The notes beneath the pieces were generated by a model. The model saw nothing but the letters and a program-made list of their open reading frames with translations. It did not search any database and was not told where the DNA came from. The translations under genes were made by a program, and so were the position numbers. Of a stretch of 64,000 bases of DNA, positions 6,570 to 58,833 are shown one piece after another; positions within the stretch are counted from its first letter, which is position 1; every line of letters begins with the position of its first letter. The stretch comes from an uncultured delta proteobacterium (GTDB lineage Bacteria > Myxococcota_A > Polyangia > Fen-1088): the NCBI GenBank assembly GCA_963737265.1, contig CAVTRY010000008.1:1446-65445 (forward strand), given 5' to 3'.

Positions 6570-7213
6570 CCGAGGGACCGCGCGACACCGCGACACTGCT
6601 AAATGGGGGTGGTCCGGTGGGTTTCAATCCACGCGCGGGCCCGAGGGACCGCGCGACCAACCCTCGCAAGATTTCTCCACATGCTAAGAAGTTTCAATCC
6701 ACGCGCGGGCCCGAGGGACCGCGCGACCGAGCCTTCCGGCCGCCCGACAAGCTGCCAGGAGTTTCAATCCACGCGCGGGCCCGAGGGACCGCGCGACGCT
6801 CTGGCACGATCCCAGCGCGCCCTGATCAAGAGTTTCAATCCACGCGCGGGCCCGAGGGACCGCGCGACTTGCCCGAGTTTTTGCCCCGGCATCATGGGCT
6901 GGTTTCAATCCACGCGCGGGCCCGAGGGACCGCGCGACGAGCTGTCGTCGACGTGGCCGACCCAGCATTGATGTTTCAATCCACGCGCGGGCCCGAGGGA
7001 CCGCGCGACAGTTGAATGAAAGCGTCGGTGACTTCATGCACTTGTTTCAATCCACGCGCGGGCCCGAGGGACCGCGCGACACGGATCGCGACGATACTCT
7101 GGCAATGTCCAATCGTGTTTCAATCCACGCGCGGGCCCGAGGGACCGCGCGACCTGTTGGCGTCTACTCTGCTGGACTCGGGCGCAAGGTTTCAATCCAC
7201 GCGCGGGCCCGAG
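6570..7213 (-). CRISPR. CRISPR array, trailer-side segment (type I-C repeat)
   Basis: Composition: a 17-nt partial repeat (6570-6586), 8 full 37-bp repeats GTTTCAATCCACGCGCGGGCCCGAGGGACCGCGCGAC starting at 6621, 6691, 6761, 6832, 6902, 6973, 7044 and 7117, then a 25-nt partial repeat (7189-7213). Nine spacers of 33-36 bp. The minus-strand repeat ends ..GGATTGAAAC, typical of I-C. Confidence 0.95.
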
Positions 7214-10700: not shown

Positions 10701-13700
10701 CCGAGGGACCGCGCGACCTGGCGCTATCGGTGCGCTGGACTGGCACGTCCGAGGTTTCAATCCACGCGCGGGCCCGAGGGACCGCGCGACGTGTGCCGCC
10801 TTTGTAGTCAACAGGTAGCTCAACTGTTTCAATCCACGCGCGGGCCCGAGGGACCGCGCGACGCTGGCAAACTGCGGACACTGCTTCTCGATTGCAGGTT
10901 TCAATCCACGCGCGGGCCCGAGGGACCGCGCGACCCCACGCGTGCTAGGTGGCATCGTCAAATAGGCTGCGTTTCAATCCACGCGCGGGCCCGAGGGACC
11001 GCGCGACAATCTATTTTGCTCCAAGTGCGGCCGAGGCATGGGTTTCAATCCACGCGCGGGCCCGAGGGACCGCGCGACGGTTTCCTCTTCGGACTCGTCG
11101 GCGCCCTGCTGGTTTCAATCCACGCGCGGGCCCGAGGGACCGCGCGACCCTGCCGCTGACGCCTCTCGGCTCTCCGTTGCTTTTGTTTCAATCCACGCGC
11201 GGGCCCGAGGGACCGCGCGACCTGCCCGACTTGCAAGGGTGCGTGCACGGTCCTAGGTTTCAATCCACGCGCGGGCCCGAGGGACCGCGCGACCTCGACG
11301 ACGTGAGCTGGTTCGTCTGCGAGGAGGTTTCAATCCACGCGCGGGCCCGAGGGACCGCGCGACCTTCACCGAGTGGCACAGCACCAGAACAGACGAGTTT
11401 CAATCCACGCGCGGGCCCGAGGGACCGCGCGACCACCAAGGGTCCGCCGATGTCATGCGCCGTCGCGTTTCAATCCACGCGCGGGCCCGAGGGACCGCGC
11501 GACTTGAAGACAGGCGGCACACGCCGATCATTTTGCATAGTTTCAATCCACGCGCGGGCCCGAGGGACCGCGCGACGACTACAAAGGCGGCACACTGCTA
11601 GCGCCTGACGGTTTCAATCCACGCGCGGGCCCGAGGGACCGCGCGACGTGCGCGGCGATTTGCATGACGTGGAATTTGCAGTTTCAATCCACGCGCGGGC
11701 CCGAGGGACCGCGCGACTTGCTGGCGCCGTTACCATTCAGTATGCGCGCTGGGGTTTCAATCCACGCGCGGGCCCGAGGGACCGCGCGACCCCGCCCGAT
11801 GTTCTGGCATAGTTCAGCGCAATGGTTTCAATCCACGCGCGGGCCCGAGGGACCGCGCGACCCCGTGGAGTATCCCCCCGCTATTGCGACGTTTGTTTCA
11901 ATCCACGCGCGGGCCCGAGGGACCGCGCGACGTTATTCACGGGCGTGAATGACGTTCCAACGTCGGAGTTTCAATCCACGCGCGGGCCCGAGGGACCGCG
12001 CGACAGCCTGCCGTTGAAGTGCAACTAGCTATCCCGCTGGTTTCAATCCACGCGCGGGCCCGAGGGACCGCGCGACCGCCTGGAACGAATGTAATCCCTG
12101 CGGGATTGTGGTTTCAATCCACGCGCGGGCCCGAGGGACCGCGCGACTGACCCACGCGACGATAGACGACGAGCGATCACCGTTTCAATCCACGCGCGGG
12201 CCCGAGGGACCGCGCGACTGGGATACTGGGAGGTGTCACCATGGTGACAAAGTTTCAATCCACGCGCGGGCCCGAGGGACCGCGCGACCCGATGTGTACC
12301 CACTGCCGCCGCTTTCGCCTGTGTTTCAATCCACGCGCGGGCCCGAGGGACCGCGCGACTCGCTAGTTAGCATGTGGAACCTCTGCACAGTAGTTTCAAT
12401 CCACGCGCGGGCCCGAGGGACCGCGCGACACCCGTTGTTGTGGCGTTAGTTGCAAATATGCTTGGTTTCAATCCACGCGCGGGCCCGAGGGACCGCGCGA
12501 CGATCCGCTTGTCAGCACCCGGCTGGGGTAGGTAGGTGTTTCAATCCACGCGCGGGCCCGAGGGACCGCGCGACTACTGTGCCGAGGTACCACATGCTAA
12601 CTAGCGATGTTTCAATCCACGCGCGGGCCCGAGGGACCGCGCGACTGAGCAGCGGCGCGAGGAGCGCACGCGCGATGTTGTTTCAATCCACGCGCGGGCC
12701 CGAGGGACCGCGCGACATGTACTTCTCACCAAGGTACGGCCCGTGTTGTTTCAATCCACGCGCGGGCCCGAGGGACCGCGCGACGGTCGAACTCCGTGGC
12801 GAAGTAGCGGTTCTCCATCACGTTTCAATCCACGCGCGGGCCCGAGGGACCGCGCGACCCGTGGACCAGCCACCATGCGGTGCGGACCAAGGTTGTTTCA
12901 ATCCACGCGCGGGCCCGAGGGACCGCGCGACTCCAGCTAGGCAACCAGAATGCTTTCCAGCGCCCGCGTTTCAATCCACGCGCGGGCCCGAGGGACCGCG
13001 CGACGAGGTGGAGATCCGCCGAGCCGTCTCGCTCATGGTTTCAATCCACGCGCGGGCCCGAGGGACCGCGCGACACGAAACGACGCTTTACCCACGTGTG
13101 CCCCGGACCAGTTTCAATCCACGCGCGGGCCCGAGGGACCGCGCGACTCAATTTGGCCCACTACCGCAACAGTGCTGACCTTGTTTCAATCCACGCGCGG
13201 GCCCGAGGGACCGCGCGACTCGGGCTGTGGCCGCCGGTTGCCTTGCTCCACGAGTTTCAATCCACGCGCGGGCCCGAGGGACCGCGCGACCAGGACGGCC
13301 TCAAGCGGGTGGACATCGAGACCTGGTTTCAATCCACGCGCGGGCCCGAGGGACCGCGCGACCCTGCTGGGGCGCTTTGGCAGCTCACGCTAGACGTTTC
13401 AATCCACGCGCGGGCCCGAGGGACCGCGCGACACGTTGATGCTCGCAAACAACTACAAACAGCAGGTTTCAATCCACGCGCGGGCCCGAGGGACCGCGCG
13501 ACGTCGCCGTGAACAGGAGTATCTCGACAGTGCCAGGTTTCAATCCACGCGCGGGCCCGAGGGACCGCGCGACTATTTTACGGTTTTCAGGCTACGACCG
13601 ACAACCTAGTTTCAATCCACGCGCGGGCCCGAGGGACCGCGCGACGTCCGTCTGACTGATGACGTCGATGTTCATCTGGTTTCAATCCACGCGCGGGCCC

Positions 13701-14856
13701 GAGGGACCGCGCGACTGTGCCCCATCGAGGGACTGTCGAGATGGACGCAGGTTTCAATCCACGCGCGGGCCCGAGGGACCGCGCGACCGGTCATCGTCTC
13801 AAACGCGAATACATCGTAGTCGGTTTCAATCCACGCGCGGGCCCGAGGGACCGCGCGACCCGGCCGGTTACCACTTGTCCGGCACGCAAGCTGTTTCAAT
13901 CCACGCGCGGGCCCGAGGGACCGCGCGACCGCTTCGGCTTCCGCCGCAACCGGAGTTGAAACAGGTTTCAATCCACGCGCGGGCCCGAGGGACCGCGCGA
14001 CTAGAGGGATGGTCAAGGGTGATGGGCACACCATTGTTTCAATCCACGCGCGGGCCCGAGGGACCGCGCGACGTCAGCACAGCAGGCGCGGTAACAGCAT
14101 CAAATATAGGTTTCAATCCACGCGCGGGCCCGAGGGACCGCGCGACGCCAATAGCCAAAGCAAGCGCGTCGGCCCTGGTGAGTTTCAATCCACGCGCGGG
14201 CCCGAGGGACCGCGCGACGGGGGATTGACGTGCTCAAGATGTCCAAGGAAAGGTTTCAATCCACGCGCGGGCCCGAGGGACCGCGCGACGGGTCTTGGCA
14301 GTGTGACCAACGATGCGCAAACGTTTCAATCCACGCGCGGGCCCGAGGGACCGCGCGACCCCACAGCATCTCGCCCTGCCACCGCGTGAAGTATCGTTTC
14401 AATCCACGCGCGGGCCCGAGGGACCGCGCGACCATCATCTTCCAACGCTAAGGAGCTGACCCATGTTTCAATCCACGCGCGGGCCCGAGGGACCGCGCGA
14501 CGGCGCAAGTTCCCGACGGCGCTCATTCGCTCCGATGTTTCAATCCACGCGCGGGCCCGAGGGACCGCGCGACGGCATCAACGCCCTGGCCACGCTCTCC
14601 ACCGGCGAGTTTCAATCCACGCGCGGGCCCGAGGGACCGCGCGACCGCTGCGGGCCTTGTCGGATTATTGGGGTCAGCATGTTTCAATCCACGCGCGGGC
14701 CCGAGGGACCGCGCGACATGGAGCGTAAGCTCCTTCTGCAGATGCTCACGAGTTTCAATCCACGCGCGGGCCCGAGGGACCGCGCGACCCGCTCAGAAAA
14801 GCGTCTTTGCCGACTCCATGTTTCAATCCACGCGCGGGCCCGAGGGACCGCGCGAC
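10701..14856 (-). CRISPR. CRISPR array, leader-side segment (type I-C repeat)
   Basis: Starts with the remainder of the split repeat (10701-10717), then 58 full 37-bp repeats (first at 10754, last at 14820-14856). 58 spacers of 31-37 bp. The leader and cas2 lie directly beyond 14856. Confidence 0.97.
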
Positions 14857-19878: not shown

Positions 19879-20593
19879 CCCATTCGTCGGCTTCGACGGC
19901 CACTGGGTTCACATTCTCACCGACACCGAACCGCTTCGGGTTCATGTCGCGGACGAATTTGCGAATTGTGCACTCCTCGGGCCGGGGAAATCGCAGGGCA
20001 CCGTTCACCAGCTTTGGCATCCAGAAGCGTGCATGTAACTTCTTGTCGCCCGTCTCATCCGGATAGTCGAAGCCAAGAAACATCAGTCCGAACGCAAGCT
20101 CCCCGGCGCTGTCCAGATCCCCGTTGCCAGACCCGAACTCGCATGGCTCGACGTAGCCCTGGCAGTCTCGGGTGCCAAGGAAGATGTCTTGCCGTCCGCC
20201 CCGTTCCAGCATGCGTTGGGCGATGGCAAAATGCTTTCCGTCAACCCGGTCCTTGGCCAGGTCAGGTTGTGCCTCGTTCCATTCAAAGTGGGCCTGCACC
20301 TGGTATTCCACATCCGCGAGGAATGTGTAGATGGCCAGCGTATTGCCGCCGCCGTACTCCAGCGGCTTGCTTCCCTTGGTCTGCGTGCGGATCCGCTTCA
20401 TCACGCGCATCTGGTCGATGACCCACACAATGGTCGGCTTCCAGTAGATCGCCTTGGCGATGCCTTTCAGCGCCTCGTATGTCGGAATGTGGTACGAGCA
20501 CTTCTCGCCACCGATCTTGGTCAAGGGATCGGTGAAGAGCGCGTAGCGTCCCCAAGTCTTGAACTCAATCGTGTTTTTTTGCTTGTTCGACAT
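19871..20593 (-). CDS. cas5: Cas5d (type I-C, pre-crRNA processing subunit)
   Basis: From M45 of the ORF: [53 protein letters not shown].., a typical Cas5d N-terminus. Overlaps the cas3 3' end by 29 nt. Confidence 0.85.
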
Positions 20594-23063
20594 AGAGGAA
20601 TTCCCCCGGTGACACGGGCTCGGTGGAGAGCCCAAAGTCCCTGCTGTAGTAGCTTTCGTTGAGGTGGAAGATTTCTGTCCCTGGCTGAACTTCGCTAATC
20701 GCGTGCGCGTCCCTGAGCCGGTCAAACTCGTAGCTGAAGACGTTCACCGTGAATTGCTGTGCAGCACGCAGCAACCGGAATTGCTTTTCGACATCCGTCG
20801 CGGCGCATAGCCCTACGATGAGCTGCCGACCCTCCCCGTAAGGAACGACAACGCCTTTCGTTGGTGCATCGATGGCTTGGAAAGCTTCGTTTGCTGTTTT
20901 GAAGGATTGCCGAAAGTAGTTGGCCTTGCCTTGCTTGAATCCGGCCACTACCAGCGAGTTTGTGGACAGCATGTTCAACAGATCGTCGCCATGGCCTGCC
21001 TTGCTGGGATTGATTGGGTATCCCATCTCGTCCTTGCGAGCGAAGAAGTAGTTCTCGTAGAACCACGCCATGGCCTTTGGGGAAAGCAAATCGTTGTCGA
21101 ACCGCGCGGGATCGTCGCGGAAATCGTTGAGCACGCGTGCGGCCTTGTCCCGGGCTATGGCGATGTCTCGGAGTGAAGAGAGCGATTCCTCGGCCGGGTT
21201 GATGACGTGGACGAATCCTGACGGATTTCTTCCGTTTCGGTTGCAGCGGCCAGCGGCTTGCGCAATGGAGTCCAACCCCGCGGCAAACCGAATCACGCAT
21301 CCAAAGTCGACGTCTACGCCGGCCTCGATCAGCTGAGTGCTGACGCAGAGAGTACGCTCGTCATCAAGGAGCTGTTGACGAATCTTCGCCAGCGAGGACT
21401 TGCGGTGGGCCGGGCACATGCTTGTGCTGAGATGATGGGCCGGCAGGCCGGATCCCGTGACCATCTTGAACAAGGCACTTGCGGCTTTCTTGGTGTTCAC
21501 GACCACGAGGCAGCTTCCGGTGCGAGCGACTTCGGACTTGGCCAGGTCCGCGATATCGCGGTCATGCCAGCCGCCCGGCCGACGAGCATCCTTCACCTCG
21601 ACCCTTCGGAGTTTCGCGAAGGTGTCTTGGACGTCTGGGACGATTTCGCTTCCGAAGGTGATTTTCGCTGCGCCCTTCTTCTCGTCTACTTGGCCCAGCA
21701 GCGGTTGGGTCGCGGTGCAAAGGACCACCGTGCTCCCACCCTGCGCGGTAAGAAGGTTGATGGCGTTGTTGAAAAGGTGAATGCACCTGACCGGCAGGCT
21801 CTGGATTTCGTCGAAGATGATCACCGCTCGGGCAAGCTGATGCATGCGCCGGACACCTCGGGTGCCCCCGCCAAGAACAGCTTCGAGAAACTGCACGCTG
21901 GTTGTGTAAACCACAGGTGCATCCCAGTTCTCCGACAGGAGCTTGTTCTTCCAGCCTTGGTGCAGCGGCTCCAGGTTCGAGTGATGTTCCAGGACGACCT
22001 TGCCGCGGTCTTCTGGGCAGGAGTCAGGTTCAAGAATCCGACGGGCGACATCGGCGTTTTGGTCGATGATGGTGGTGAATGGCACCACGTAGATCACGCG
22101 ATCCAGGCCATGGGCACGGGCGTGATGAAGGGCGAAGCGAAGGCTGGCCAGGGTCTTGCCGCCACCAGTGGGGACGGTGAGAGTGAAGATGCCGCGTGGT
22201 CGGGATGCGGCTTGCCGACAGTGCTCGGAGATGTCCTGGCGAATGGCGTCGATCGGGTGTTTGGGCTTGAGCGTGATGAGATGTTCTTCGAGTCGATTTG
22301 CCAGGACATCCCAAGGCATGAACTCGCCATGCTGACGTTCTTGGGCGGCCCGGGGACGTTCGAAGTCGGCCGTATCTTCGCGGTCGGCATCGATCAAGCA
22401 GCTGAATAGAAAACGAACCAACAGTCCAAGCTGGAACTGGGCAACCTGGTTACTGTGGGACTTTTCTGGGGATCCCAGCGCGATGTCGCGGAGGTGTCCA
22501 GTGAAGGACGTGACGAGCGATTCATCCTGCAACAGGGTCGTTGCTCTTGCTCGAAGCCTTGGGTCGAGCTTGCCCAGGGATTCGTCAAAGTGAGATCGTG
22601 CCTCAGCTTTAAGCATCCTCCGGCTGAAGTCGTCGCGTGGTCCCTCGACCGGATCCGCCACCAAGCAGTCAATGAGCCCCGAATGATGGGATGCTATGCA
22701 AAGGGCCAGTGCTTGGCCCACGATGGGCCCCAAGGGACCAGCCTTGGTTAGCTCGTTCCATACTAACTTGGCACCTGCCGTCGAGTGGTCGACCTTACCT
22801 CTCTGCGCAGCCGGCACCTCGTCGTCACCGTCTGGGTTCTCCTTGCCCGTCACGCTTCGCAGGTAGTTTTGAAATGCATCGCTGTGTTTGCCGAGATCAT
22901 GAAGAAGCCCGATCAGCTCGCCGGCTGAACCAAGCCCCAGCTTGTTCGCCGACTGGGCGCATCGCCGGGCTGTTCCCTCAAGGTGATCGGATAGAGAGTG
23001 TTCCGCGCCATTGGACTCGCGCACGTGGGCGATCGGGGGGCGGCGATTCGCTTCCTTCTCCAT
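20565..23063 (-). CDS. cas3: Cas3 HD nuclease/helicase
   Basis: HD region (..[13 protein letters not shown]..; ..SHHSG..) and helicase motifs (TVPTGGGKT; IIFDEIQS; ..CTATQP..). Start set at M18 (MEKEANRR), just after the upstream gene's stop. Confidence 0.9.
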
Positions 23064-23073
23064 CCCCACCACC

Positions 23074-24126
23074 CTACGCCTCCCCTTTGTCACTACTGGA
23101 CAATGAATCGCCACTGAGCTCTGCCTCGATCTCCTCGACCGTGGGCAATCCGTCTTTCAGATCGGCGGGAAGGCTGGCGACGATCTTGGTCTCCCATTCG
23201 GCGACGCCGACGGGCTTTCGCAGGCCGCGCAGGGCGTATTCGGCGACCAGCTTGTTGCGCGAACGGCACAGCAGCAGGCCCACGCTGGGTTTGTCGTCGG
23301 GGTGGCGCAGCAGATCGTCGACGGCTGACAGGTAAAGGTTGATCTGGCCGACGTCGCCGGGACGGAAGGGCGTGGCTTTCAGCTCGATGACCACGTAGCG
23401 GCGCAGTTTCAGGTGATAGAAAAGCAGGTCGAGCAGGAAGGTTTCGTCGCCCACTTCCAAACGCACTTGGCGGCCGACGAAGGCGAAGCCCGAGCCCAGC
23501 TCCAGCAGGAAACGCTGAACGTGATCGACCAGCGCTTGCTCGACTTCGCGTTCGCGGCGCGGGTCGGCGGTACCCAGGAAATCGAAGAGGTAGGGATCTT
23601 TGAATACTTGGCTGGCCAGATCCGAATCCGCCGGGGGCAGGGTGTCCTTGAAGTTGTTGACGGCCTTGCCTTGGCGCTCGTGAGCGCGACCGTCGATCTG
23701 GATGGCCAGGATGTTGCGGCTCCAGCCATTTTGGACGCTTTGACGGATGTACCAGTCGCGAACGTTTCGGTCTTTGATACGTTGAATCAGCCGAACGACG
23801 TGTCCCCAAGGCAATTGTGAAACAAGCTGTTTCACCTTCTGCCTTTCCCGGTACGCATCCGCGAAGGCGCGCATGAAGAGCAGATTTCTCGGGGAAAGCC
23901 CCTTCATCTCGGGAAACGCAGCTTGCAGATCTGCGGCCAGACGATCGATGACGCGCGCGCCCCAGCCCTCGCGTGCCTGTCGATCGAGAATCACCCGTCC
24001 GATGTCCCAATAAAGTAAGACCATGGCCGAATTCGCGGCCAGAACGACACGCAGGCGTTCTTGCCGAACGCGGTCTTTGATTTCGGCCAGAGCCGCGGCG
24101 TAGTCCTTGGGAAGATCCGATCGCAT
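23074..24126 (-). CDS. DUF1016/YhcG-family PDDEXK-type nuclease-like protein
   Basis: ..LYWDIGRVI.., ..LPWGHVVRLI.., ..NGWSRNIL.., ..DPYLFDFLG.., ..GFAFVGRQVRLEVGDETFLLDLLFYHLKLRRYVVIELK.. is the DUF1016 pattern with a D...(D/E)xK-like core. Start set at M44 of the ORF. Confidence 0.7.
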   Translation of the reverse strand: MRSDLPKDYAAALAEIKDRVRQERLRVVLAANSAMVLLYWDIGRVILDRQAREGWGARVIDRLAADLQAAFPEMKGLSPRNLLFMRAFADAYRERQKVKQLVSQLPWGHVVRLIQRIKDRNVRDWYIRQSVQNGWSRNILAIQIDGRAHERQGKAVNNFKDTLPPADSDLASQVFKDPYLFDFLGTADPRREREVEQALVDHVQRFLLELGSGFAFVGRQVRLEVGDETFLLDLLFYHLKLRRYVVIELKATPFRPGDVGQINLYLSAVDDLLRHPDDKPSVGLLLCRSRNKLVAEYALRGLRKPVGVAEWETKIVASLPADLKDGLPTVEEIEAELSGDSLSSSDKGEA

Positions 24127-24730: not shown

Positions 24731-26236
24731 TCAGTTCAGCCAGTCTCCGCCCTCGCCACCAGATTGCGAGGGAGGCGGTCGTGCGGGCCAGAGTTTTGGC
24801 GCACAGGTGGGCAGGCCCATGGCCTTGAGGATTTTCTTGATGGTGTCCTCGGTCTCGATCATGGCGATGAGGCGCAGAGGTGTTTTGCAGCGAGGGCAGA
24901 CGGTGTCGATCTCGAACGTATTTTTCAGAAGCTGGGACCAGGAAATGTAGTGTGAAAGTGGCAGTGAAGGCTTGTCGTCTTCCTCGGGCGCGGCCACGGC
25001 GGCGACTGGGACGACTTGGCTGCGGAGGCTGGAGTGCGAGGAGATGACCCCCGAGTATCTGACGACATGCCGACGAGGAGGGGGAACCAAGGCCGCCAAG
25101 CGCGCAATAAGGGCGAGCGGCGCAAGGTCAACTGACGATGTGCCATCGGACCAAGGCCGCTTGAACTCCAGCCTCACGTGACCGTCGTCGAGGATCTTGA
25201 GGCGGTCGTTGGCCAGGGGCGGGCGCAAGATGTACTTGCACAGGTTCTCGCGACCCTTCTTGTCGTTGGCGGCGACCTTGGTCTGAGCATGCAGGTTAAA
25301 CCCGGCTTGCTGGCCGCATAGCTTGCCCTTGGCCACGGGAGTGGCGTCTGGGTCGAGCACGATACGCACGAGAGCGCGCTTGTGCGCAGGACCGGCGGGA
25401 GAGGCGCCAGCGGTGGCGGCGGCCAACAAGCGGGCCAGGAGCGGATCTTTGTCGCCCATGGTTTCGTCGGTGACGACGGTGACCTCACCGTCGCCGGGGG
25501 CGGTAACGAGGGTGATGACACCGCGACGCTTTAGGAAGCGGAGGATGCGCTTGCTGGCGCGCGCGACGATGGCAAGGACGTCCTGTTGGGCAAGTTCCGG
25601 CGCCGGGTGGAAGATGGGCGCACCGCCGTCGCGCCCAGGGGCGTAGCAGCCATCGAGCTGGAGGACATGAAAATGCGGTGAGAGCCGCAGGTCGCTGTTG
25701 GCGCGCTGGATGACAGTGACGGCGCCACACTCGCCGTCGGCAATACCCCGATCTGCCATGCGCTTGCGATAGTTGGACGCCACGGTGTCGATGAAGATGC
25801 GCAGGACTTGGCCGAGTAGTTTTCCGTCGAAGGCCAAGGGAAACCTCAGAGGGAAAGGCAGCGTAAGCACGAATTGTCGGATGGGCACTTCGGGCAGCAC
25901 GTGGTCGACGAGAGTCAGCGCCCCCGCGTTCATGCGTCTGCCGCCACAGCTCGGACAGAAACCACGACCTTTGCAGGACCAAGCCACCGCATACCGCTCG
26001 TGGCAGGTTTTACAGAAAAGTTGTGCGAAGCCCCGCGCCAAGATTCCACACCCTAGGAAGTCGTGCAGCTCGTCGGTGACGAAGCTGGGCAGCGTGCGGC
26101 CGTCGGACTTGTCGGTCCACTCCTGCTCGAAGGTCAGAAGATGCTGCTGGAGCACCTGGAAAAGGGCGGTCTTTTCCGGCTCCCGGCGGGCATAGGTGTA
26201 CCCGGTCGCAGGTTTTGCGCATGCCGCTGCCTCCAT
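24731..26236 (-). CDS. IS91-family transposase
   Basis: Zinc-binding N-terminus (CKTCHERYAVAWSCKGRGFCPSCGGRRM), HUH-type motif (SPHFHVLQLDG), ..LCKYILRPP.., and C-terminal CPRCKTPL. 501 aa. Confidence 0.85.
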   Translation of the reverse strand: MEAAACAKPATGYTYARREPEKTALFQVLQQHLLTFEQEWTDKSDGRTLPSFVTDELHDFLGCGILARGFAQLFCKTCHERYAVAWSCKGRGFCPSCGGRRMNAGALTLVDHVLPEVPIRQFVLTLPFPLRFPLAFDGKLLGQVLRIFIDTVASNYRKRMADRGIADGECGAVTVIQRANSDLRLSPHFHVLQLDGCYAPGRDGGAPIFHPAPELAQQDVLAIVARASKRILRFLKRRGVITLVTAPGDGEVTVVTDETMGDKDPLLARLLAAATAGASPAGPAHKRALVRIVLDPDATPVAKGKLCGQQAGFNLHAQTKVAANDKKGRENLCKYILRPPLANDRLKILDDGHVRLEFKRPWSDGTSSVDLAPLALIARLAALVPPPRRHVVRYSGVISSHSSLRSQVVPVAAVAAPEEDDKPSLPLSHYISWSQLLKNTFEIDTVCPRCKTPLRLIAMIETEDTIKKILKAMGLPTCAPKLWPARPPPSQSGGEGGDWLN

Positions 26237-42467: not shown

Positions 42468-42535
42468 CGGCACCAGAACAGGCTCGGCGCAAAAAAGCGG
42501 CCTTTTTCGCCGGGGGACCCCTTCGCGATGCTGGA

Positions 42536-42625
42536 AGCGCTTGCCCGAACGCCGGGTAAGGTCCGCAGCCCAACGAATCTGCACGCCGGGCGGCCGGGTG
42601 ACCTTTTCCGCCGACCGGCGGGTGC
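42536..42625. repeat. 42-bp tandem repeat (~1.5 copies) containing palindrome ACCCGGC-G-GCCGGGT variants
   Basis: ..GCCCGAACGCCGGGTAAGGTCCGCAGCCCAACGAATCTGC ACGCCGGGCGGCCGGGTGACC... Followed by a ~190-bp block that is conserved upstream of A2, A3 and A4. Confidence 0.7.
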
Positions 42626-42812
42626 GCCTTGGGCGTCCGGTCAGGCGTTCGGCGTCACGGGTTGGTTCGAGCGAGCGAGTGCGTGCCTATCTTCCGGGTC
42701 GGGGTTAGCATGTCGCGGCTAATAGCTACGTGGATCCGCGGCCCGCGTGTCAAACCGGGCTTCGGTTTCAGCCACCGACCAAATCGACGAATATCCCACA
42801 GAGCCGACCACC

Positions 42813-46895: not shown

Positions 46896-48908
46896 ATGGC
46901 CAGGCACAAGATCGACTTCGAGGAAGAAGACCCCAAGCCCAACTGGCGCTACGAGGTCAAGCCCCGGCTCTACACGCCACCTGGCCAGAAGCCCCCGCCG
47001 CTGGCCAACAAGAACGGCCCGACACGGGCGGTGGTTCGCGTGGCGCCCGCGGATCGGCGGCTGGACAACGAGACCCCTGCCGATCCGCAGTCTCCCGACA
47101 TCACCGGTAGATACCAAAGCGATGGCGCCAAGGAGGCGTCAGGCAAGCCCGCCTTCCTTCTGCACGTGAACCAGGCCGGCAAGCACGTCGAGGCCTTGCT
47201 GGTGCGGCTGCCGCACGGACATCAGCATGGCTCGATCGCGCAGCAGCGGTTCTATGCGGATCTGAAGGGTGATGGCGTGTTCGCCGCGAGCACGCCCACC
47301 GTAGCCGAGGGAGCCACGGTCGAGGGTGTGTCCGGCGAGATTCGCCAGCAGGGCGAGGAATTGATCGTCAACCTGCCGGTCTGGGATGGCCTGGACGGGA
47401 CCACGTTTTATCTGCGCGACAAGCGCGCGACCTTTCTCGATCAATCGTTGGATTCCTTGATCGAAGCCGAAGGCGCGGTGGTGGGACAGGATCCGGAGAT
47501 CAAGGCCCTGGTCGAGAGCATCGAGAACCTGCCACTTTCGGATGCCCAACGATCTCGTCTGCGCCAGGTCTTCACACCCGAGATACTCGATCCATTGCTT
47601 AAAGATTGCTTCGGCCACGGCTCGAAAGACGACGACATCAGAAGATCCGCGGTCGTTGGCTCGGCCGAGCAGTTGGACATTTACCTTGGCAAGGCGTTCG
47701 ACCAGTCAAGCTGGTCACACCAGCAATGGCCGCAGGTGCTTCAATACGTGCGCACCGTCCTGACGATGCAAACGGTGGTCATCAACGACAGTCGACGCTC
47801 CGAATTAGATTGGATCGAGACGGTCGCCGCCGAGGCCATTCCCGATGCCGACTATTTGGTTCATCCGACGGCCACCAACCCAGACAAGGGCCAACCAACC
47901 GAGTTTCCCAACTTGACTCGGCTTCTTGGGATCACGGAGCAACACGGGAGCGGCGCCGTTCACAAGTACCTGGTGGATGTCGATTTGACGGCACACGACA
48001 CCTCGCCCAAGAAATTCGGTCTGGCGCCGTTTCACTTGCGGGCATACGAAGGAACAGTCACCGTGTCAAAGATGGATTCGACAGGCCGAAAGGATTGGGT
48101 GCATCCCTACAAGATGGCGCTCGTTGGTCCGGCTGTCATCCTGGGTAAGGGTGGCGCGGAAGACGTCAAGGCAAGGGGCTCATTCGAGTCGAGCACCAAC
48201 TGGACACCCGCCGACTTTCCAGGGTGGGTGATTCTCCACGATGCTGGTGTATGGGCGGGAAATAGGCTTCCAGTAACGAAGGAACTCGTTGCTGTGGGCC
48301 ATCGCGAGCCTGTCCTTGTCCTAAGAGGTCGGGGCAACCATCGTGAGCAACTGTTCCCGCTCAAAGGCGCTGATGCGCTCCGGGAGGGGCTCGGTGGTGA
48401 GTACTCGTTCACGTGGGGAAGAATCTACGACCTGGACACGGACCTGTCCGAAATCGACTACAGCCGCCCGATGAAGCACTCGGAACGAGTGGTGACGACG
48501 CGAACAGGGGACAACGTGCACTTCGAGTTCGGGAGCGCTTTGCTGAAGGGCGCCGGGCGATATCAGGTGCGGGTATTGTGCGCGATTTGGTTGCGCTGGT
48601 TGGAATCCGCGAGAAGCACCCTTCGCATCGTTGGCCACGCCGACACGGTGGATACGAAACGGCGCAACGACGAGCTTTCTCTCATGCGCGCCACGAATGT
48701 CGTCCGGGCGATCGAGGGCATTCTTGGCCCCAAGCTCGCAATTCCGGATATCAAGCCCCTGGGGCTAGGGAAACAAGAAGCCGACGAGGACAAAGCAGCC
48801 AGGGAAAGGGCAGTCGGGCACCGGCTTCGGGATACGCCCGACGTTCGATTCCGAAAAGTCGAGATCGAGCTGAATGGGCAATGCGTGCTGGTGTTGTGGG
48901 GAGCTTGA
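46896..48908 (+). CDS. cassette 2 protein D (OmpA-like C-terminus, candidate effector)
   Basis: 670 aa. The first ~340 aa are essentially identical to D1, the patch at about aa 345-480 is diverged, and the OmpA-like C-terminus is conserved. Confidence 0.65.
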   Translation: MARHKIDFEEEDPKPNWRYEVKPRLYTPPGQKPPPLANKNGPTRAVVRVAPADRRLDNETPADPQSPDITGRYQSDGAKEASGKPAFLLHVNQAGKHVEALLVRLPHGHQHGSIAQQRFYADLKGDGVFAASTPTVAEGATVEGVSGEIRQQGEELIVNLPVWDGLDGTTFYLRDKRATFLDQSLDSLIEAEGAVVGQDPEIKALVESIENLPLSDAQRSRLRQVFTPEILDPLLKDCFGHGSKDDDIRRSAVVGSAEQLDIYLGKAFDQSSWSHQQWPQVLQYVRTVLTMQTVVINDSRRSELDWIETVAAEAIPDADYLVHPTATNPDKGQPTEFPNLTRLLGITEQHGSGAVHKYLVDVDLTAHDTSPKKFGLAPFHLRAYEGTVTVSKMDSTGRKDWVHPYKMALVGPAVILGKGGAEDVKARGSFESSTNWTPADFPGWVILHDAGVWAGNRLPVTKELVAVGHREPVLVLRGRGNHREQLFPLKGADALREGLGGEYSFTWGRIYDLDTDLSEIDYSRPMKHSERVVTTRTGDNVHFEFGSALLKGAGRYQVRVLCAIWLRWLESARSTLRIVGHADTVDTKRRNDELSLMRATNVVRAIEGILGPKLAIPDIKPLGLGKQEADEDKAARERAVGHRLRDTPDVRFRKVEIELNGQCVLVLWGA

Positions 48909-49486
48909 TGCGTGGAAGGAACGCGTGTCTCATCGTCGGGCTCGCCTTCAGTTCAGCGAGTGGTTGCCACAAGAAGACGCCAGCAGGAATTTCCTTCGCC
49001 TATGTCGACGCCGTCTCCGCGTTGGCCGATCAGACGGCAAAATACTGCGATCATCTTTTGCGCGAGAGTGCTTGCTACAGCGCCTTGAGCATAAATCCCG
49101 ACAATGAACACCGACTGGCCGTTCCTTTGCCTGACAATCCGCTGGGTGGCATCCCCGAGCTGCGCCAACTGAAAGCAAAATGCGATTCCGCCGACGAGCA
49201 CAACAACCACCAACTCTGGTGCGACGCCAAGAGCGTAGTCAAAACCCGACTTCCAAGAGAATGTGAAATGTTTAGCCTCTTCGGCTCTTGGCCAGTGGTC
49301 AACCGGCTAGAGAAGGAAGGCGTCACCGTGTCAGTGGTGGACGACCCGGCATGCAAGGCTCCGTGGGTCGAGGTTGCGGCGGTCCGAAAAACGCCCGGCG
49401 GAGACTGGTTCTCGCTCAACGCCTACTTCCTACCGAAAAAGTGGCTCGATGAGCATCCAGAGGACGCCAAGGATGCAAAGAAGTAG
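48908..49486 (+). CDS. cassette 2 protein E (small lipoprotein, candidate immunity)
   Basis: Lipobox GLAFSSASGC. TGATG overlap with D2. About half of its residues are identical to E1, and the last ~45 aa are identical. Confidence 0.6.
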   Translation: MRGRNACLIVGLAFSSASGCHKKTPAGISFAYVDAVSALADQTAKYCDHLLRESACYSALSINPDNEHRLAVPLPDNPLGGIPELRQLKAKCDSADEHNNHQLWCDAKSVVKTRLPRECEMFSLFGSWPVVNRLEKEGVTVSVVDDPACKAPWVEVAAVRKTPGGDWFSLNAYFLPKKWLDEHPEDAKDAKK

Positions 49487-49556
49487 AGGCACCCGAACGG
49501 GCTCGGCGCGAAGAGCGGCCTTTTTCGCCGGGGTACCCCTTCGCGATGCTGGAAAT

Positions 49557-49680
49557 GCTTACCCGACGGCCGGGCAAGGTCTGCGCGCGAGCGGGTCTGC
49601 TCATCCTACGGCCGGGTAAGCTCCGCAGCCCAGCGGATCTGATCTCCGGGCGGCCGGGTAACCTTTTCCGCCCACGGCGG
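49557..49680. repeat. 42-bp tandem repeat (~2.5 copies)
   Basis: TTACCCGACGGCCGGGCAAGGTCTGCGCGCGAGCGGGTCTGC / TCATCCTACGGCCGGGTAAGCTCCGCAGCCCAGCGGATCTGA / TCTCCGGGCGGCCGGGTAACC.. Confidence 0.75.
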
Positions 49681-49871
49681 GTGCGTCTTGGGCCGCCGGT
49701 CAAGCGCTCGGCGTCACGGGTTGGTTCGAGCGAGCGAGTGCGTGCCTATCTCCCGCGTCGGGGTTAGCATGTCGCGGCTAAGATATACGTGAACCCGCGG
49801 CCCGCGCGCCGAGGCGGGCTTCGCTTTCAGCCACCGACCAAATCGACCAACATCCCACAGCGCCGACCACC

Positions 49872-54047: not shown

Positions 54048-56362
54048 GCCCGATTCCAGCCCGTGCCGAGGTTGGCATCAACTTCGTGCGGTGGGATGCG
54101 CGCTTCCTCTTCTATCGCGATCTGCCGCGACCAGCGGGTAGCCCCGGCGACAGGGTGACCACGCCGGTCAAGAACTGCTGGCTCTACATCTTCGACCCAT
54201 TCGGACCATTGCTGTTCGAGGTCTATGCCGATGCCGATGGCCTGTATCACGAGGTCGATACGACGAAGCACGCCGGCAAGGACATCAGACCGTTCGCGCT
54301 GGAAGGCCAGGCGGTGCGCCCCACCCTGCCGCTGCTGGCTGGCCAGCGGACGTCCAAGGGGACGATCCCCATCTTCCACTGGATCTTGCCGTCGCCGTTT
54401 CAATTGCCGTGGTCACGCTTCCCGCACCTCACGCACCTGGAAACAAACAACGACGGCCCGCGTGGCGATTTCAGAAAATGGGCCGAGGGCACCCGCCAGC
54501 TATCTCACTTCGTGCCGAGGTTTCAAGAAGACACAGGGAACCCGTTGCCCGAAACGGCGGTTCCTTCCCCGTGGCTGCATGCCCAGGCCCTCGGCCGATG
54601 CTTCCAAATCGCGCAAGAGCGGTGGCTGTCGGGCTTTCTCGACGACACCGCCCGCATGGAACGCAAGACCCTGCGCTCGTACGTGCGATCCATCGAATCG
54701 ATCGTGGGCAAAGAGCGCTTCGAGCGCGACATGCTGGATCTCATCGACAAGCTCGCCTTCGAGACCGAGGAGAGGCACGACAAGGAGCAAGAGGAGTTTC
54801 CGCCTACCGAGCTGGTCGGGGCGCGCACCGCGCTGATCGGCTACCTGAAAAGCCCACGCTATCTGGCCATGCGCGACGATGCCCTGGCGTCGCCCGACCC
54901 GCGCGCCCTGGCGACTTTCGCCGAGATCCAGGCCACGGCGGAATCGGGCCTGGAAGGCGTGGCCGGCGATCCTGCTTACCGCGCGTCCGTGTTGCGCGAC
55001 AACCCCAAGCTTTTCAAGAAAGAGGCCGAGGAGGTATCGACCGAGGTTAAGTCCTTCATCGAGGCCCACCCGGAAGCCATGTACGACCAGCCCGCGAGCC
55101 TCGGCTGGAAGGAACAGCGCAAGGCCCTCAAATCGTACTGGTACCTGGTCAAGGCGTATATCGCACAGATCGAATGGATCGCGCCGCGCAGGTTGACGAG
55201 GGATCTCAAGACCTTTGGCCGCGAGCTGTTTGGCGTGCTGGTGGAGTTCGATTTGGCCGAAGGGACGGCGGCTCGGCGGATGCCCGACGGAACCATCAAG
55301 TGGCCACGCCTCGTGGTCAGCCCACAGACCAAGGCCCGTCTGTCCGATAGGTATTCGAACAACCTGGAATGGAACACCTTCTTCGTCGTGCTCGATGCCT
55401 ACAACCTCATCATGGCCTGCCAGGAACAAGCCAAAGGCAAGACCGACATGAAGACCGTGGTGAGCGCCATGGGCGCTTTCCTGAACACCGTGGCCGCCGC
55501 CGTCGAGGCGACATTACAGCGGCAAGGAGCGAAGCACCTGATCGTCACCGACAAGATGATCGCCGAGCTGGCCGAGGGCGCGGGCAAAACCAGCGCGAGG
55601 AAAGGATCGGGAAGCTTCGCGGTCACGCTGCGGAAGTTTAACCAGCCGAAGACGATTGGAGCGATGGGGAAGTTGTTGGGGGCACTGGGGTCTGCCTTCG
55701 AGGCTTGGAGCCAAATTCAGCAGGCGAAAGGGGCGGATTCCGAATTGGACCCAGATGTGGCCCTGGCACATCGAGTTTCGGCAGGGGCGAATATTGCAGT
55801 GACAGCAGGCTATTTCATCGGATTTTTCGGGACCGTGTGTGGAATCGCGGTAGGTACAGCCGTCGCCTGGCCGCTGGCCTTGGTGGCAATTGGCTCGTGG
55901 CTGGTTCTCGGCGGGACGGTCACGGATTTGGGGGCAAAGCTGGTCTTGCTGCATCTGAAGAAGGATCCGCTGGAGAATTGGTTGAAGGTCACGCCATGGG
56001 CGCGTGGGGCAAGATTCCGGATTGAAAGCTTCGACGAACAGGTTAAGGCCTTTCATAGGGCGCTGGTAGGACTGCATGTGAACATCCGCCCCGGCCTCAC
56101 CGGCTTCGACGTGACAGTCGAATCACGAGTTGTCCAGTCCCCCGCCCAGGTCTATCTCGAGCTCGAATGGCTGGGCGAAGCCGGTCCTGAGCCGTTGAAG
56201 AACGCTATGGCACCCATGACAGCAGCGGAATACCTGAGTCCAAGCCAATTCAGACATACCGAGTTCGCTTCGCCCGTGAGGACCGTGACAGCCCGCGTGC
56301 GCCTGCTCCTGGATGGCGAGTGGTATCCGGAGGAGCCGGCGGTGTTCAACTACCCGGAGTAG
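54044..56362 (+). CDS. cassette 3 protein D': unrelated large protein with C-terminal Gly/Ala-rich TM helix cluster (candidate membrane-active toxin, possibly VasX-like)
   Basis: 772 aa with an ATGA overlap with C'. N-terminal ..NCWLYIFDPFGPLLFEVYADADGLYHEV... C-terminal hydrophobic cluster ..ANIAVTAGYFIGFFGTVCGIAVGTAVAWPLALVAIGSWLVLGG... No OmpA-like domain. Confidence 0.5.
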   Translation: MSPIPARAEVGINFVRWDARFLFYRDLPRPAGSPGDRVTTPVKNCWLYIFDPFGPLLFEVYADADGLYHEVDTTKHAGKDIRPFALEGQAVRPTLPLLAGQRTSKGTIPIFHWILPSPFQLPWSRFPHLTHLETNNDGPRGDFRKWAEGTRQLSHFVPRFQEDTGNPLPETAVPSPWLHAQALGRCFQIAQERWLSGFLDDTARMERKTLRSYVRSIESIVGKERFERDMLDLIDKLAFETEERHDKEQEEFPPTELVGARTALIGYLKSPRYLAMRDDALASPDPRALATFAEIQATAESGLEGVAGDPAYRASVLRDNPKLFKKEAEEVSTEVKSFIEAHPEAMYDQPASLGWKEQRKALKSYWYLVKAYIAQIEWIAPRRLTRDLKTFGRELFGVLVEFDLAEGTAARRMPDGTIKWPRLVVSPQTKARLSDRYSNNLEWNTFFVVLDAYNLIMACQEQAKGKTDMKTVVSAMGAFLNTVAAAVEATLQRQGAKHLIVTDKMIAELAEGAGKTSARKGSGSFAVTLRKFNQPKTIGAMGKLLGALGSAFEAWSQIQQAKGADSELDPDVALAHRVSAGANIAVTAGYFIGFFGTVCGIAVGTAVAWPLALVAIGSWLVLGGTVTDLGAKLVLLHLKKDPLENWLKVTPWARGARFRIESFDEQVKAFHRALVGLHVNIRPGLTGFDVTVESRVVQSPAQVYLELEWLGEAGPEPLKNAMAPMTAAEYLSPSQFRHTEFASPVRTVTARVRLLLDGEWYPEEPAVFNYPE

Positions 56363-57341
56363 ACACCTTGCCCTTTGGTGGGGCCAGGTATTTGCGCAGG
56401 AAACCGGCGAGCAGATTCGCGGTCCCGCAGATTGGGGAACAGGAGAAAACCCCCTGAACAATGACCAATTCTCCCGCATCACCATCGCCAACGACCCTGA
56501 CCGCACCCTCGTGAGCGTCGAAGGTGCGTACGGTCCCCCGGTGCCGAAGGAAGACTTCCCTCTTTCCTTTCCGAAAGGTAGCCACGCTGGCACGCCGGCC
56601 GTCATAGACAATCCAGCACGGGCCTAGCGTGCTCAGAATGGCGGCCGCCACGGCTATGACCGTTGCGTACGTTGGAAGAAAAACAAATGGGAAGAAGGCT
56701 ATCCCCGGCGCTGTCAGCATGGCTACCCCCACGCCCACGACCCATTGGCGCGCACTGCCGAAGTTGGCGATGGAGACGCTGTTCTCGTCGTACCCGACAA
56801 CATCGGCTCCGGATTCGGCCAACAAGGGAAGAAAACTTCTTTCGGAATCCTCGCCCAGCGACGCTCCTAAAAAGCGTTCGAGGATCGCCGAGGCTTCGAC
56901 CCGTTCGACCTCGTCTGAGGTCACACGTGCGGGAACAGACGCAGTCGGGAAATCCCAGTCCGCTGGGGAGCAGCCATGTGGAAGTTCGATGGTCCACTGA
57001 CCATCCCCCAGATCTATGAACATGCTTCTGGTTCCGCGTTTCAGCACGAGAAAACGCCGACCACGATCGGCTAGCCAAATGAGGAAGAACGTCGGGAACG
57101 CCCCAAGTAGGAGCCAAGGAATCGAAGGCCCGAGCTTGGAATCCACCCATCTGGCAATCACCAAAAAGAGCGCAAGGAGAAACCAGAACATCGTAAACCA
57201 CGCCGCCTTGGCGATGGCGGGAGCCGTCAAGGGAAACACAATCTCGTCGTCGCTGATCTTCTTGATGCGGTAGCAGCGGCGCAAAAGCGCCTTCTCGTCT
57301 TCCGTGAGATGAGCCGCTGGTGTTTGTGCCCCGTCTGACAT
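56346..57341 (-). CDS. multi-pass membrane protein (candidate immunity protein for D')
   Basis: 331 aa with several TM helices (WFTMFWFLLALFLVIA; WLLLGAFPTFFLIWL; VGVGVAMLTAPGIAFFPFVFL; TVIAVAAAILSTL). Convergent with D', overlapping it by 17 nt. Confidence 0.55.
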   Translation of the reverse strand: MSDGAQTPAAHLTEDEKALLRRCYRIKKISDDEIVFPLTAPAIAKAAWFTMFWFLLALFLVIARWVDSKLGPSIPWLLLGAFPTFFLIWLADRGRRFLVLKRGTRSMFIDLGDGQWTIELPHGCSPADWDFPTASVPARVTSDEVERVEASAILERFLGASLGEDSERSFLPLLAESGADVVGYDENSVSIANFGSARQWVVGVGVAMLTAPGIAFFPFVFLPTYATVIAVAAAILSTLGPCWIVYDGRRASVATFRKGKREVFLRHRGTVRTFDAHEGAVRVVGDGDAGELVIVQGVFSCSPICGTANLLAGFLRKYLAPPKGKVSTPGS

Positions 57342-57483
57342 GGCTGCTGCGCCCCAGGCCGGATTTTGCGCACGATTCGCGATGGAGACAAGACAATCCC
57401 CCGCAACGAGAATTCACCGACCGGCGCGAGCCAGCGCCGGTCCCAAGCCACGAGACGAAGTGAGTCGGGATGCGGATCCGGGT

Positions 57484-57735
57484 GTCACACGCCGGCCGTG
57501 TAGGCCCCGCAGCTCAGCGGAAGGGCTCACCCGGCGGCCGGGTAAGGTCCGCAGCTCAGCGGAGGCGCTCACCCGGCGGCTGGGTAAGGTACGCAGCTGG
57601 GCGGATCTGCTTACCCGACGGCCGGGTAAGCTCCGCAGCTCAGCGGATCCGCTCATCCGCCGGCCGGGTAGGGTCCGCAGCCCAACGGATCTGCTTACAA
57701 GGCGGCCGGGTGACCTTTTCCGCCGACCGGCGGGT
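57484..57735. repeat. 42-bp tandem repeat (~5.5 copies)
   Basis: Units such as CTCACCCGGCGGCCGGGTAAGGTCCGCAGCTCAGCGGAGGCG, each carrying ACCCGGC-G-GCCGGGT or a close variant. The 57340-57834 ORF with RRPGKVRSSAE repeats is its translation. Confidence 0.85.
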
Positions 57736-57924
57736 GCGTCTTGGGCCGCCGGTCAAGCGCTCGGCGTCACGGGTTGGTTCGAGCGAGCGAGTGCGTGCCT
57801 ATCTCCCGCGTCGGGGTTAGCATGTCGCGGCTAAGATATACGTGAACCCGCGGCCCGCGCGCCGAGGTGGGCTTCGGTTTCAGCCACCGACCAAATCGAC
57901 GAATATCCCACAGAGCCGACCACC

Positions 57925-58833
57925 ATGAGACTACCCGCAGCCTTGCTCTTCCTCATCGCCAGTCATCCCGGTCATCCCGCCAACGCCGGCGTGCCCAACG
58001 CCGTGGCCATCGCGGTGGACACCACCGGCCTCGGCCAGAAAATCGCGGCGCCGGTGCGGGATGGCATCGCGGCCCAGGTCTTGGATGGCCTTCGCGCTGC
58101 CAACATCGATTTCATCCCCACCGAGGAAACGAAGATCGTTGCGCGGATAGTGGATTGCGCTGGGATCGAGTGCCTTCGCAATATCGCCAAGTCCGCCAAC
58201 CTGGATTGGGTGGTGCAAGTTCGGGTGCGGGCCAGAGAAGCAACCAAGAAGGGCAAGTCTGACTACGTGGTCTCGATCGCCGTGGTAGGCGATGCGCCCG
58301 ATCGCGGTGCATGGCACGAGGAAGCCGACTGCCCCGGTTGCGAGGGCGGCGAGATCGAGCACATGGCTTCACTGATGGCGGGGGAGATCGCTGGACACAT
58401 TAAGGTCGATGCTCCGCCAGCCAGCACCGCGCCCGCGCCGGCAAAGGCGCCTTCCGTGGTGGCAACGCAGCCGGCACCGTTGCAAGCACCGCCGCCGCCA
58501 GCGACCTTCGTAAAGCCACCGCTACCAGCGCCGGAGCCTGCCTGGTACGTGCCGCAGTATTGGTGGGTGGGTACGCTCGCGGGCGGGGCGGTGTTGGCGG
58601 GGGCGGGTGTTTATCTGCTGCACATCGACGGGCGAGGCACCTGCGACTTGGCCGCGCCGAACCAACAATGCGCGGAGAAGTACAAGACGCAGGGCCTTGG
58701 CATCGGCATGGTGGCCGGTGGTGGTTTGGCATTGCTCGGCGGACTTGCGGGGCTGACCCTTTTCGCACCTCCCGCGGGCAGCACGGGCATTGGATTCGAT
58801 GGCTCTTCAATCTCGATCTCGGGGGAATTCTGA
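57925..58833 (+). CDS. cassette 4 protein A
   Basis: 302 aa, near-identical to A2 and A3. Confidence 0.7.
   Translation: MRLPAALLFLIASHPGHPANAGVPNAVAIAVDTTGLGQKIAAPVRDGIAAQVLDGLRAANIDFIPTEETKIVARIVDCAGIECLRNIAKSANLDWVVQVRVRAREATKKGKSDYVVSIAVVGDAPDRGAWHEEADCPGCEGGEIEHMASLMAGEIAGHIKVDAPPASTAPAPAKAPSVVATQPAPLQAPPPPATFVKPPLPAPEPAWYVPQYWWVGTLAGGAVLAGAGVYLLHIDGRGTCDLAAPNQQCAEKYKTQGLGIGMVAGGGLALLGGLAGLTLFAPPAGSTGIGFDGSSISISGEF

Follow-up and report, generated by a model that had tools for sequence, protein, structure and literature searches.

Tandem intergenic repeats whose units bear a dyad are a known kind of element, and the 42-bp arrays described here belong with them. REP families are dispersed, with tens to hundreds of copies per genome, and REP and BIME sequences are GC-rich, imperfect intergenic palindromes that often lie just past a stop codon and are sometimes tandem. 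MIRU-type minisatellites, VNTRs of high-GC bacteria, consist of 40-100 bp tandem units between same-direction genes with a copy number that varies by locus or paralogue, and they form a dispersed family with strain-to-strain polymorphism. Protein-bound arrays offer further points of comparison. In the sopC centromere of plasmid F a 43-bp unit is directly repeated 12 times, and every copy includes a 16-bp inverted repeat to which SopB binds (PMC3177203). In Myxococcus xanthus, ahpC, katB and pexR are preceded by interrupted palindromes, three to five in tandem, to which the enhancer-binding protein PexR binds (PMC12754779).

Three of the arrays reported here lie in a window of 64,000 nt (C8:1446-65445) on a 70.8-kb contig, C8, of a 6.55-Mb genome that comprises 25 contigs and has 63-64% G+C. 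The window holds four tandem secretion-toxin cassettes with genes A-E, 3′ of a Ser/Thr kinase gene (Table 1). Work on the tandem effector and immunity cassettes of contact-dependent weapons has mostly dealt with their proteins, and to our knowledge the switching-on of single cassettes in such arrays is largely unknown, above all in uncultured myxobacteria-like lineages. Cassette 1 abuts the kinase gene and has no repeat region, as an earlier preliminary description of this DNA had stated; the A1 start lies 9 nt past the kinase stop. In cassette 3 the tail of C and the D gene are different, and E is replaced by a convergent membrane-protein gene. Head-to-tail 42-bp units, about 1.5 before A2, 2.5 before A3 and 5.5 before A4 in the assembled sequence, precede the internal cassettes. 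These numbers agree with those of the preliminary description. Tandem Repeats Finder confirms the repeats (period 42, with 5.4 copies at 57485-57711, 80% matches, 0 indels and a score of 251, and 2.3 copies at 49565-49661); in the A2 spacer a single complete unit is followed by a partial one. A repeat search returned six copies in register at 42-nt spacing, and the dyad pattern ACCCGGCNGCCGGGT, allowing up to 2 mismatches, has 8 matches, all within three spacers, against 0.83 expected. A fourth array follows E4 beyond the window.

Table 1. Coordinates of the features discussed; positions are those of the window unless a contig is named.
Feature	Position	Strand	Description
Gene A			first cassette gene; 302 aa, signal peptide
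Gene B			cassette gene; Cys-rich repeats
Gene C			cassette gene; Tox-PAAR-like
Gene D			cassette gene; OmpA-like C-terminus
Gene E			cassette gene; lipoprotein-like
A2 array	42539-42603	+	a2.1, 42539-42580; partial unit, 42581-42603
A3 array	49557-49663	+	a3.1 (49557), a3.2 (49599); partial unit, 49641-49663
A4 array	57483-57715	+	a4.0-a4.4 starting at 57483, 57525, 57567, 57609, 57651; partial a4.5, 57693-57715
Fourth array	C8:67607-67767		outside the window; 3.5 units, after E4; cut by IS21-family insertion
5′ flank of A4 array	57417-57482	+	unique, 66 nt; kept with the array in a distant lineage
Post-E hairpin block before A2 array	42497-42538	+	42 nt, in register with the array
Post-E hairpin block before A3 array	49515-49556	+	42 nt, in register; 16/42 consensus matches, null 11.6 ± 2.8
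Promoter candidate, A4	57795-57823	+	GTGCCT-17 nt-TAGCAT, sigma-70-like, predicted; invariant core of the conserved block
Promoter candidate, A3	49742-49770		equivalent candidate
Promoter candidate, A2	42683-42711		equivalent candidate
Hairpin, presumed A4 5′ UTR	57844-57884	+	CCGCGGCCCG...CGGGCTTCGG then TTTC; RNAalifold pairs, columns 149-186
A4	57925-58833	+	first gene of cassette 4; 302 aa, signal peptide, no Pfam match
Membrane-protein gene	56346-57341	-	immunity candidate of cassette 3; divergent from A4, with the A4 array between both
ISL3-family transposase gene	C8:65556-66803		DDE_Tnp_ISL3; beyond the window end
IS21-family element	C8:67770-70665		IstA rve + IstB
CRISPR/Cas3/IS91-family stretches	6619-7081, 10753-14717
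CRISPR/Cas3/IS91-family stretches	20565-23114, 24731-26236	-
80-84-bp repeat family	C7:179305-179814, C13:557450-557741, C14:154474-154717, C21:168628-168880, C23:537719-537966
43-bp tandem arrays	C13:208926-209272, C13:377692-377964		8.1 and 6.3 copies

The consensus of 14 units is GCTCACCCGACGGCCGGGTAAGGTCCGCAGCTCAGCGGATCT. Dyad 1 occupies unit positions 2-22 (15-21 bp, centre CGGCCG), and its consensus, with A at unit position 10, has 7-9 bp arms around a 5-nt centre. Dyad 2, TCCGC-AGCTCA-GCGGA at unit positions 24-39, fills most of the remaining unit. Each unit has a second conserved box, CCGCAGCTCAGCGG, and the box centres are about 20 and 22 bp apart. Read from the sequence, the 42-bp period corresponds to four helical turns, as first proposed, and would place the boxes all on one face of the helix. 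The dyad that the preliminary description assigned to each unit is present as a symmetry, but its perfect 7-1-7 form occurs in just 3 of the 14 full units.

Relatives of the locus fall into those that carry an array and those that do not. A homologues of the same genus (41-53% identity) belong to single cassettes with no such repeat upstream. In a Logan assembly from a close lineage (L026), whose coding DNA is 85-88% identical to the window (77-85% at third positions), the order is kinase, A, B, C3, D3′ and membrane gene; the spacer that follows has 3.5 units plus the conserved block and leads to a truncated second cassette. This second cassette (L026:10001-11309) is a deletion derivative: an A2-type A gene breaks off after its first ~470 nt and runs directly into the last part of D and an intact E (94% identical to window positions 48665-49500). 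A more distant group, L053, comprises five contigs from different metagenomes found via E homologues, with coding DNA 64-79% identical to the window and identities at 4-fold-like sites of 51% in E, 60% in D, 73% in C and 27-39% in A. Its array, homologous to those of the window as is that of L026 and found at the corresponding place, has 5.9 units, lies between an E-like gene and the next A, and is identical in five of five independent samples, so that no copy-number instability is seen in the L053 lineage. The terminal E genes of L026, of L052 and of the single-cassette variant L056 have no array, and the array thus goes with the following cassette and not with the E end. Arrays are also absent from L085, which has a membrane gene beside an A gene, and from L071, L077 and L080, where other genes are the neighbours. 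Since L085 has the same promoter core without an array, the array is dispensable.

Comparison with the described systems places the arrays nearest to sopC in layout. Tandem direct repeats of about 43 bp with one inverted repeat each have their counterpart in the 42-bp period and its 15-23-nt dyad, and the head-to-tail order, the single 15-21-bp dyad per unit and the phasing on one face make sopC the closest architecture overall. Unlike sopC, however, the 42-bp arrays occur four times inside a toxin-cassette array, and they have no adjacent parA/parB: ParB_N (PF02195) matches fall on contigs C11, C2 and C10 only, with none on C8. A blastn search of plasmids with the array gave no match, and a partition centromere was rejected on these two grounds. 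With the PexR sites the unit shares short interrupted palindromes in three to five tandem copies (CACCG-n6-CGGTG for PexR, CACCCG-n5-CGGGTR for the 42-bp unit), a position upstream of or over promoters and a myxobacterial genome, the PexR sites serving an oligomerising regulator; it differs in sequence, in its second conserved box and in the lack of a detected sigma-54 promoter, and we do not claim membership in that class.

The likeness to REP and BIME elements is one of form. The unit is an extragenic, imperfect palindrome with a stable stem-loop, but it is not dispersed in many copies. A search allowing 10 substitutions and blastn with 7-nt words place it at four sites in the genome, all on C8, and a covariance model of the unit finds 11 plus-strand units in the genome, all within the arrays. 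The same model detected no array among 89 family genomes, there is no DNA match to the unit among 60 relatives, and exact-pattern scans of 185,579 species genomes and of JGI metagenomes gave single chance matches and no related array. The dyad alone, as ACCCG-N5-CGGGT with other centres, has 12 matches elsewhere in the genome, at or below chance. The repeat is private to this locus: within the 6.55 Mb of the genome it does not leave the cassette array, and the 60 relatives searched do not have it. The reading as a REP-like element of genome-wide spread is refuted by this confinement, which the preliminary description had itself named as the deciding point. Like MIRUs, the arrays are made of tandem intergenic units in the 40-100-bp range with variable copy number (1.5, 2.5, 3.5 and 5.5 here, 3.5 and 5.9 in other lineages); unlike them, the 42-bp family is private to one locus. 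In the one population sampled, that of L053 (5 metagenomes), no polymorphism was seen.

The arrays lie upstream of a conserved promoter-like core. Of the -35/-10-like pairs, GTGCCT-17-TAGCAT (7/12) alone is preserved in all four spacers, and MAFFT aligns it column for column with TTGAAA-17-AAGCAT of L053 and L085. The array ends about 80 nt upstream of this candidate and would span roughly -115 to -350 relative to the presumed start. The hairpin 3′ of the promoter candidate shows one compensatory C-G to U-A change together with G-U/A-U exchanges on the plus strand, and so fits a 5′ UTR. The block that contains the core had been thought to end about 100 bp before the A start; its conservation in fact reaches the ATG, with the weakest patch at ~57834-57870. 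Tandem dyad sites upstream of a promoter are also the layout of the upstream activating sites of enhancer-binding proteins, but the accompanying -24/-12 element was not found in the A2 spacer: a sigma-54 pattern (TGGCAC-N5-TTGCW, up to 3 mismatches) has no match in 42468-42812 among the matches listed. Across the window the pattern occurs at chance level (253 matches versus 266 expected), and the A3 and A4 blocks are 92-97% identical to the A2 block.

The best-supported reading, to which we give a probability of about 0.4, is that the array is a phased platform of dyad sites for a putative DNA-binding protein that controls the internal cassette promoters; the array is plausibly regulatory. The units would be a cis-acting DNA element, a phased row of dyads before the promoter of each internal cassette, and a putative dimeric or oligomeric protein that is not cassette-encoded would bind the boxes cooperatively. 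The bound protein would serve as activator or repressor of the sigma-70-like promoter, which begins about 80 bp further on, and in the A4 context may also act on the divergent membrane-protein gene. Promoter, protein binding and direction of regulation are what we infer. The operator array for a dimeric regulator that the preliminary description had suggested is consistent with the conserved island described below, the lack of codon periodicity and of strand bias, the conserved loop and centre bases and the promoter-like core downstream, and it is backed by the myxobacterial precedent of PexR; a binding protein to go with it was not found. Among the cassette proteins there is no candidate, all being secreted or membrane proteins, and a cassette-encoded regulator was rejected, with E being lipoprotein-like and the divergent gene encoding a membrane protein. 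An HTH gene beside the L026 locus has no counterpart in the source genome. Because the genome has no further copies of the dyad above chance, neither a regulon nor an autoregulatory site lends support to a regulator. Under the regulatory reading, a locus-private, conserved dyad array before each internal cassette promoter would be a handle for finding the regulator and for asking whether the cassettes are controlled separately.

The array is non-coding. Mismatches between the A4 and L053 arrays are spread evenly over the three codon phases (21/20/20), and a 14-aa protein repeat was rejected for want of codon periodicity; the open reading frame at 57340-57834 matches no Pfam family and is not preserved in the A3 spacer. 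A structured RNA or single-stranded DNA element is another alternative. In such a scheme two stem-loops per unit would insulate the cassettes, as a terminator or roadblock lacking a U-tract, as a REP/BIME-like stabiliser of the 3′ end of the upstream mRNA, or as an RNase processing site. Two hairpins and a 3-nt linker account for the whole single-stranded unit, at -12 to -24 kcal/mol per unit, and standard pairs occupy 77.7% of pair cells, compared with 22-43% when the partners are slid. One pair of the palindrome, 7-17 in dyad 1, covaries. With the L053 units included, 12 units have C-G there, 5 have A-T and 3 are unpaired; the covariation score of 0.164, versus 0.138 ± 0.011, was reached by 8 of 500 shuffles, and hairpin 2 of unit j.3 has a T-A to A-T flip. 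The covariation at pair 7-17 and the excess of paired cells indicate that dyad symmetry has been kept through change. The location about 70 nt past the E stop codon in three of the four arrays of the source genome also fits such an element. But the A4 and L026 arrays, called the largest, sit between divergent genes with no upstream sense transcript to stop, and the terminal E genes lack an array altogether.

The finer detail of the units argues in the same direction. Wobble-type cells, tallied from the unit sequences, number about 20 on one strand and about 19 on the other, and the attempt to assign a putative RNA to a strand from its wobble pairs was abandoned because the two strands are equal. 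The centre CGGCCG and the loop AGC.CA are conserved as well as the arms. Folds of the whole spacers are no better than those of shuffles (z-scores -1.7, -2.8 and +1.05), and Rfam holds no family match above noise. An intrinsic terminator was searched for and rejected: scans of the spacers show no hairpin with a U-tract on the plus strand, and the conserved CTTT(T)CC run has no consistent hairpin next to it. A perfect 8-bp hairpin, ACCGGCGC/GCGCCGGT (57415-57436, minus strand), stands shortly before the membrane-protein gene and is followed by a T-rich run; in L053, as read from the alignment, its sequence is conserved and its pairing is not. Recognition as double-stranded DNA is favoured over an RNA hairpin because of this absence of wobble strand bias, the conserved loops, the unremarkable folds, the lack of an Rfam match and of a terminator, and the loss of the flank hairpin in L053, and we regard the structured element as unlikely. 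A sponge RNA of the CsrB/RsmZ type was set aside, there being no CsrA (PF02599) in the genome and no Rfam match.

The main argument for function is an island of conservation. The A4 array aligns with L053:9318-9550 unit by unit and ungapped, at 172 of 233 identical positions (73.8%), and the flank 57417-57482 is 79% identical to L053:9250-9317, where shuffles give 49.6 ± 3.5%. Because the non-coding DNA on both sides of array and flank stands at 50-54% identity to L053, which is the shuffle level, the island stands out as conserved across lineages. Gene C, however, matches L053 at 73% of its 4-fold sites, and a mosaic history could therefore mimic constraint on the island. Per-position variability is uncorrelated between the lineages (Spearman -0.01), so that site-specific constraint is not demonstrated. 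The units resemble one another at only 71-78%, positional orthology is weak, and a unit-by-unit orthology between A4 and L053 was rejected with unit 0 alone standing out.

Parts of this record fit an effectively neutral minisatellite, in which a unit was amplified once in a spacer and copied with the cassettes, units were lost and gained by slippage and unequal crossing-over, and the palindrome merely favours slippage. The uncorrelated variability is what such a history would leave, the L085 lineage has the promoter core with no array, and some 20-25 other intergenic minisatellites in the genome, several with palindromes, keep the reading alive. The edges of the arrays probably consist of decayed units in exact register. 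The post-E block, with its A/T-containing hairpin, is exactly 42 nt long, lies in the register of the array and is probably such a unit, since 15-19 of its 42 positions match the consensus where the null gives 11.6 ± 2.8. L026 has a relic unit (24 of 42 matches) another two registers upstream, and the first two registers past the last unit are weakly unit-like (24-25 and 16-19 matches). Between the paralogues A3 and A4 the array, at 70-88% identity, diverges faster than the adjacent block, at 96.7%. Unit variants are common to arrays and recombined between them: GGCTGGG occurs in a4.2 and e4.3, the second half CCCAACGG is found in the last full unit of A2, A3, A4 and L026, and units a2.1 and l.3 are chimeric, their 5′ half being of the first type and their 3′ half of the last. 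Set against this are the island itself, 74-79% identical and free of array indels amid unalignable non-coding surroundings and with 4-fold sites of E and A at 27-51%, the shared number of about 5.5-6 units in two distant lineages, the identity of the array in the five L053-lineage samples, and the conservation of the unique 66-nt flank, which slippage cannot explain. Neutrality seems to us doubtful on balance, though to be taken seriously. If the arrays are functionless they would be a clean example of minisatellite ageing, visible in the decay of the edges, in the chimeric units and in the deletions that the younger paralogues have undergone.

The number of units suggests a history of loss. 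The chimeric units and the variants common to arrays are a signature of unit deletions. Because the 5.9 units of L053 are collinear with the 5.5 of A4 and because of the chimeric units, the long array appears ancestral and the arrays of 1.5-3.5 units deletion products; most likely the ancestral array had about 5.5-6 units and the copy-number differences arose from deletions by slippage or unequal recombination. The expanding copy number of the preliminary description, proposed as a means of tuning each cassette, finds no support in that form. Its further suggestion of a recombination or slippage substrate survives insofar as these processes can account for the differences in copy number. The regulatory platform could still be read quantitatively, with unit number, from 1.5 to 5.5, setting a fixed expression hierarchy among near-identical cassettes through cooperative loading of the protein on the dyads. 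We hold this to be improbable; if it were so, the arrays would be a hard-wired rheostat that chooses which toxin module is deployed.

An active role in rearrangement would make the arrays a homology or hot-spot for duplication, deletion and gene conversion of cassettes, or a boundary between them. The arrays lie exactly at the cassette boundaries, they mark the switch from the diverged E region to the homogenised region of block and A, the homology of the cassette-3 module with the other cassettes resumes inside the array, and units a2.1 and l.3 are chimeric. Yet several kb of near-identical A, B and C coding DNA would be a far better substrate for homologous recombination, the cassettes are not accompanied by a gene for a recombinase, the deletion junction of L026 (A′ fused to the D end) lies outside the array, and the role needs no conservation of unit sequence. 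Such a role is very improbable in our view.

Mobile elements have also marked the locus. The ISL3-family gene splits D4 from E4, so that the abrupt end of D4 at the window edge reflects an IS insertion and not the end of the cassette array. The IS21-family element has gone into the conserved block directly 3′ of the fourth array of 42-bp units. The stretch before the cassette locus contains two CRISPR arrays (repeat GTTTCAATCCACGCGCGGGCCCGAGGGACCGCGCGAC) together with genes for Cas3 and for an IS91-family (Y2) transposase.

Two possible origins of the unit were considered and set aside. A tRNA-derived element was suggested by the D-arm-like GCAGCTCAGCGG, and ARAGORN finds nothing. In two family genomes the covariance model picks out a single unit-like stretch, antisense and close to the 3′ end of a PIN_3 toxin gene, with scores of 33-35 bits. 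In these genomes (G017 and G102) L087:1501-1544 and L088:1501-1544 are ~80-90% identical to one unit, antisense within PIN_3 and beside an HTH_17 antitoxin. The likeness spans 31-50 nt only and does not extend to the flanks, the source genome has no such gene, and the resemblance is probably due to chance.

Elsewhere in the genome, a dispersed family of 80-84-bp tandem repeats, with 3-6 copies at 94-100% matches and units that carry a palindrome of type GGGAACCCTNAAAGGGTTCCC and a CCCTCCCGCG motif, is a candidate for a true REP-like family. Two 43-bp tandem arrays with ACGTATACGT in the unit are mutual reverse complements (Table 1). In L053, a dead A-gene start (ACACCATGCGCAC..., with a stop after ~10 codons) lies 3′ of the promoter-like core at 9640-9700. 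It is homologous to the live A start of L085, and the functional A start of L053 lies ~100 nt further on.
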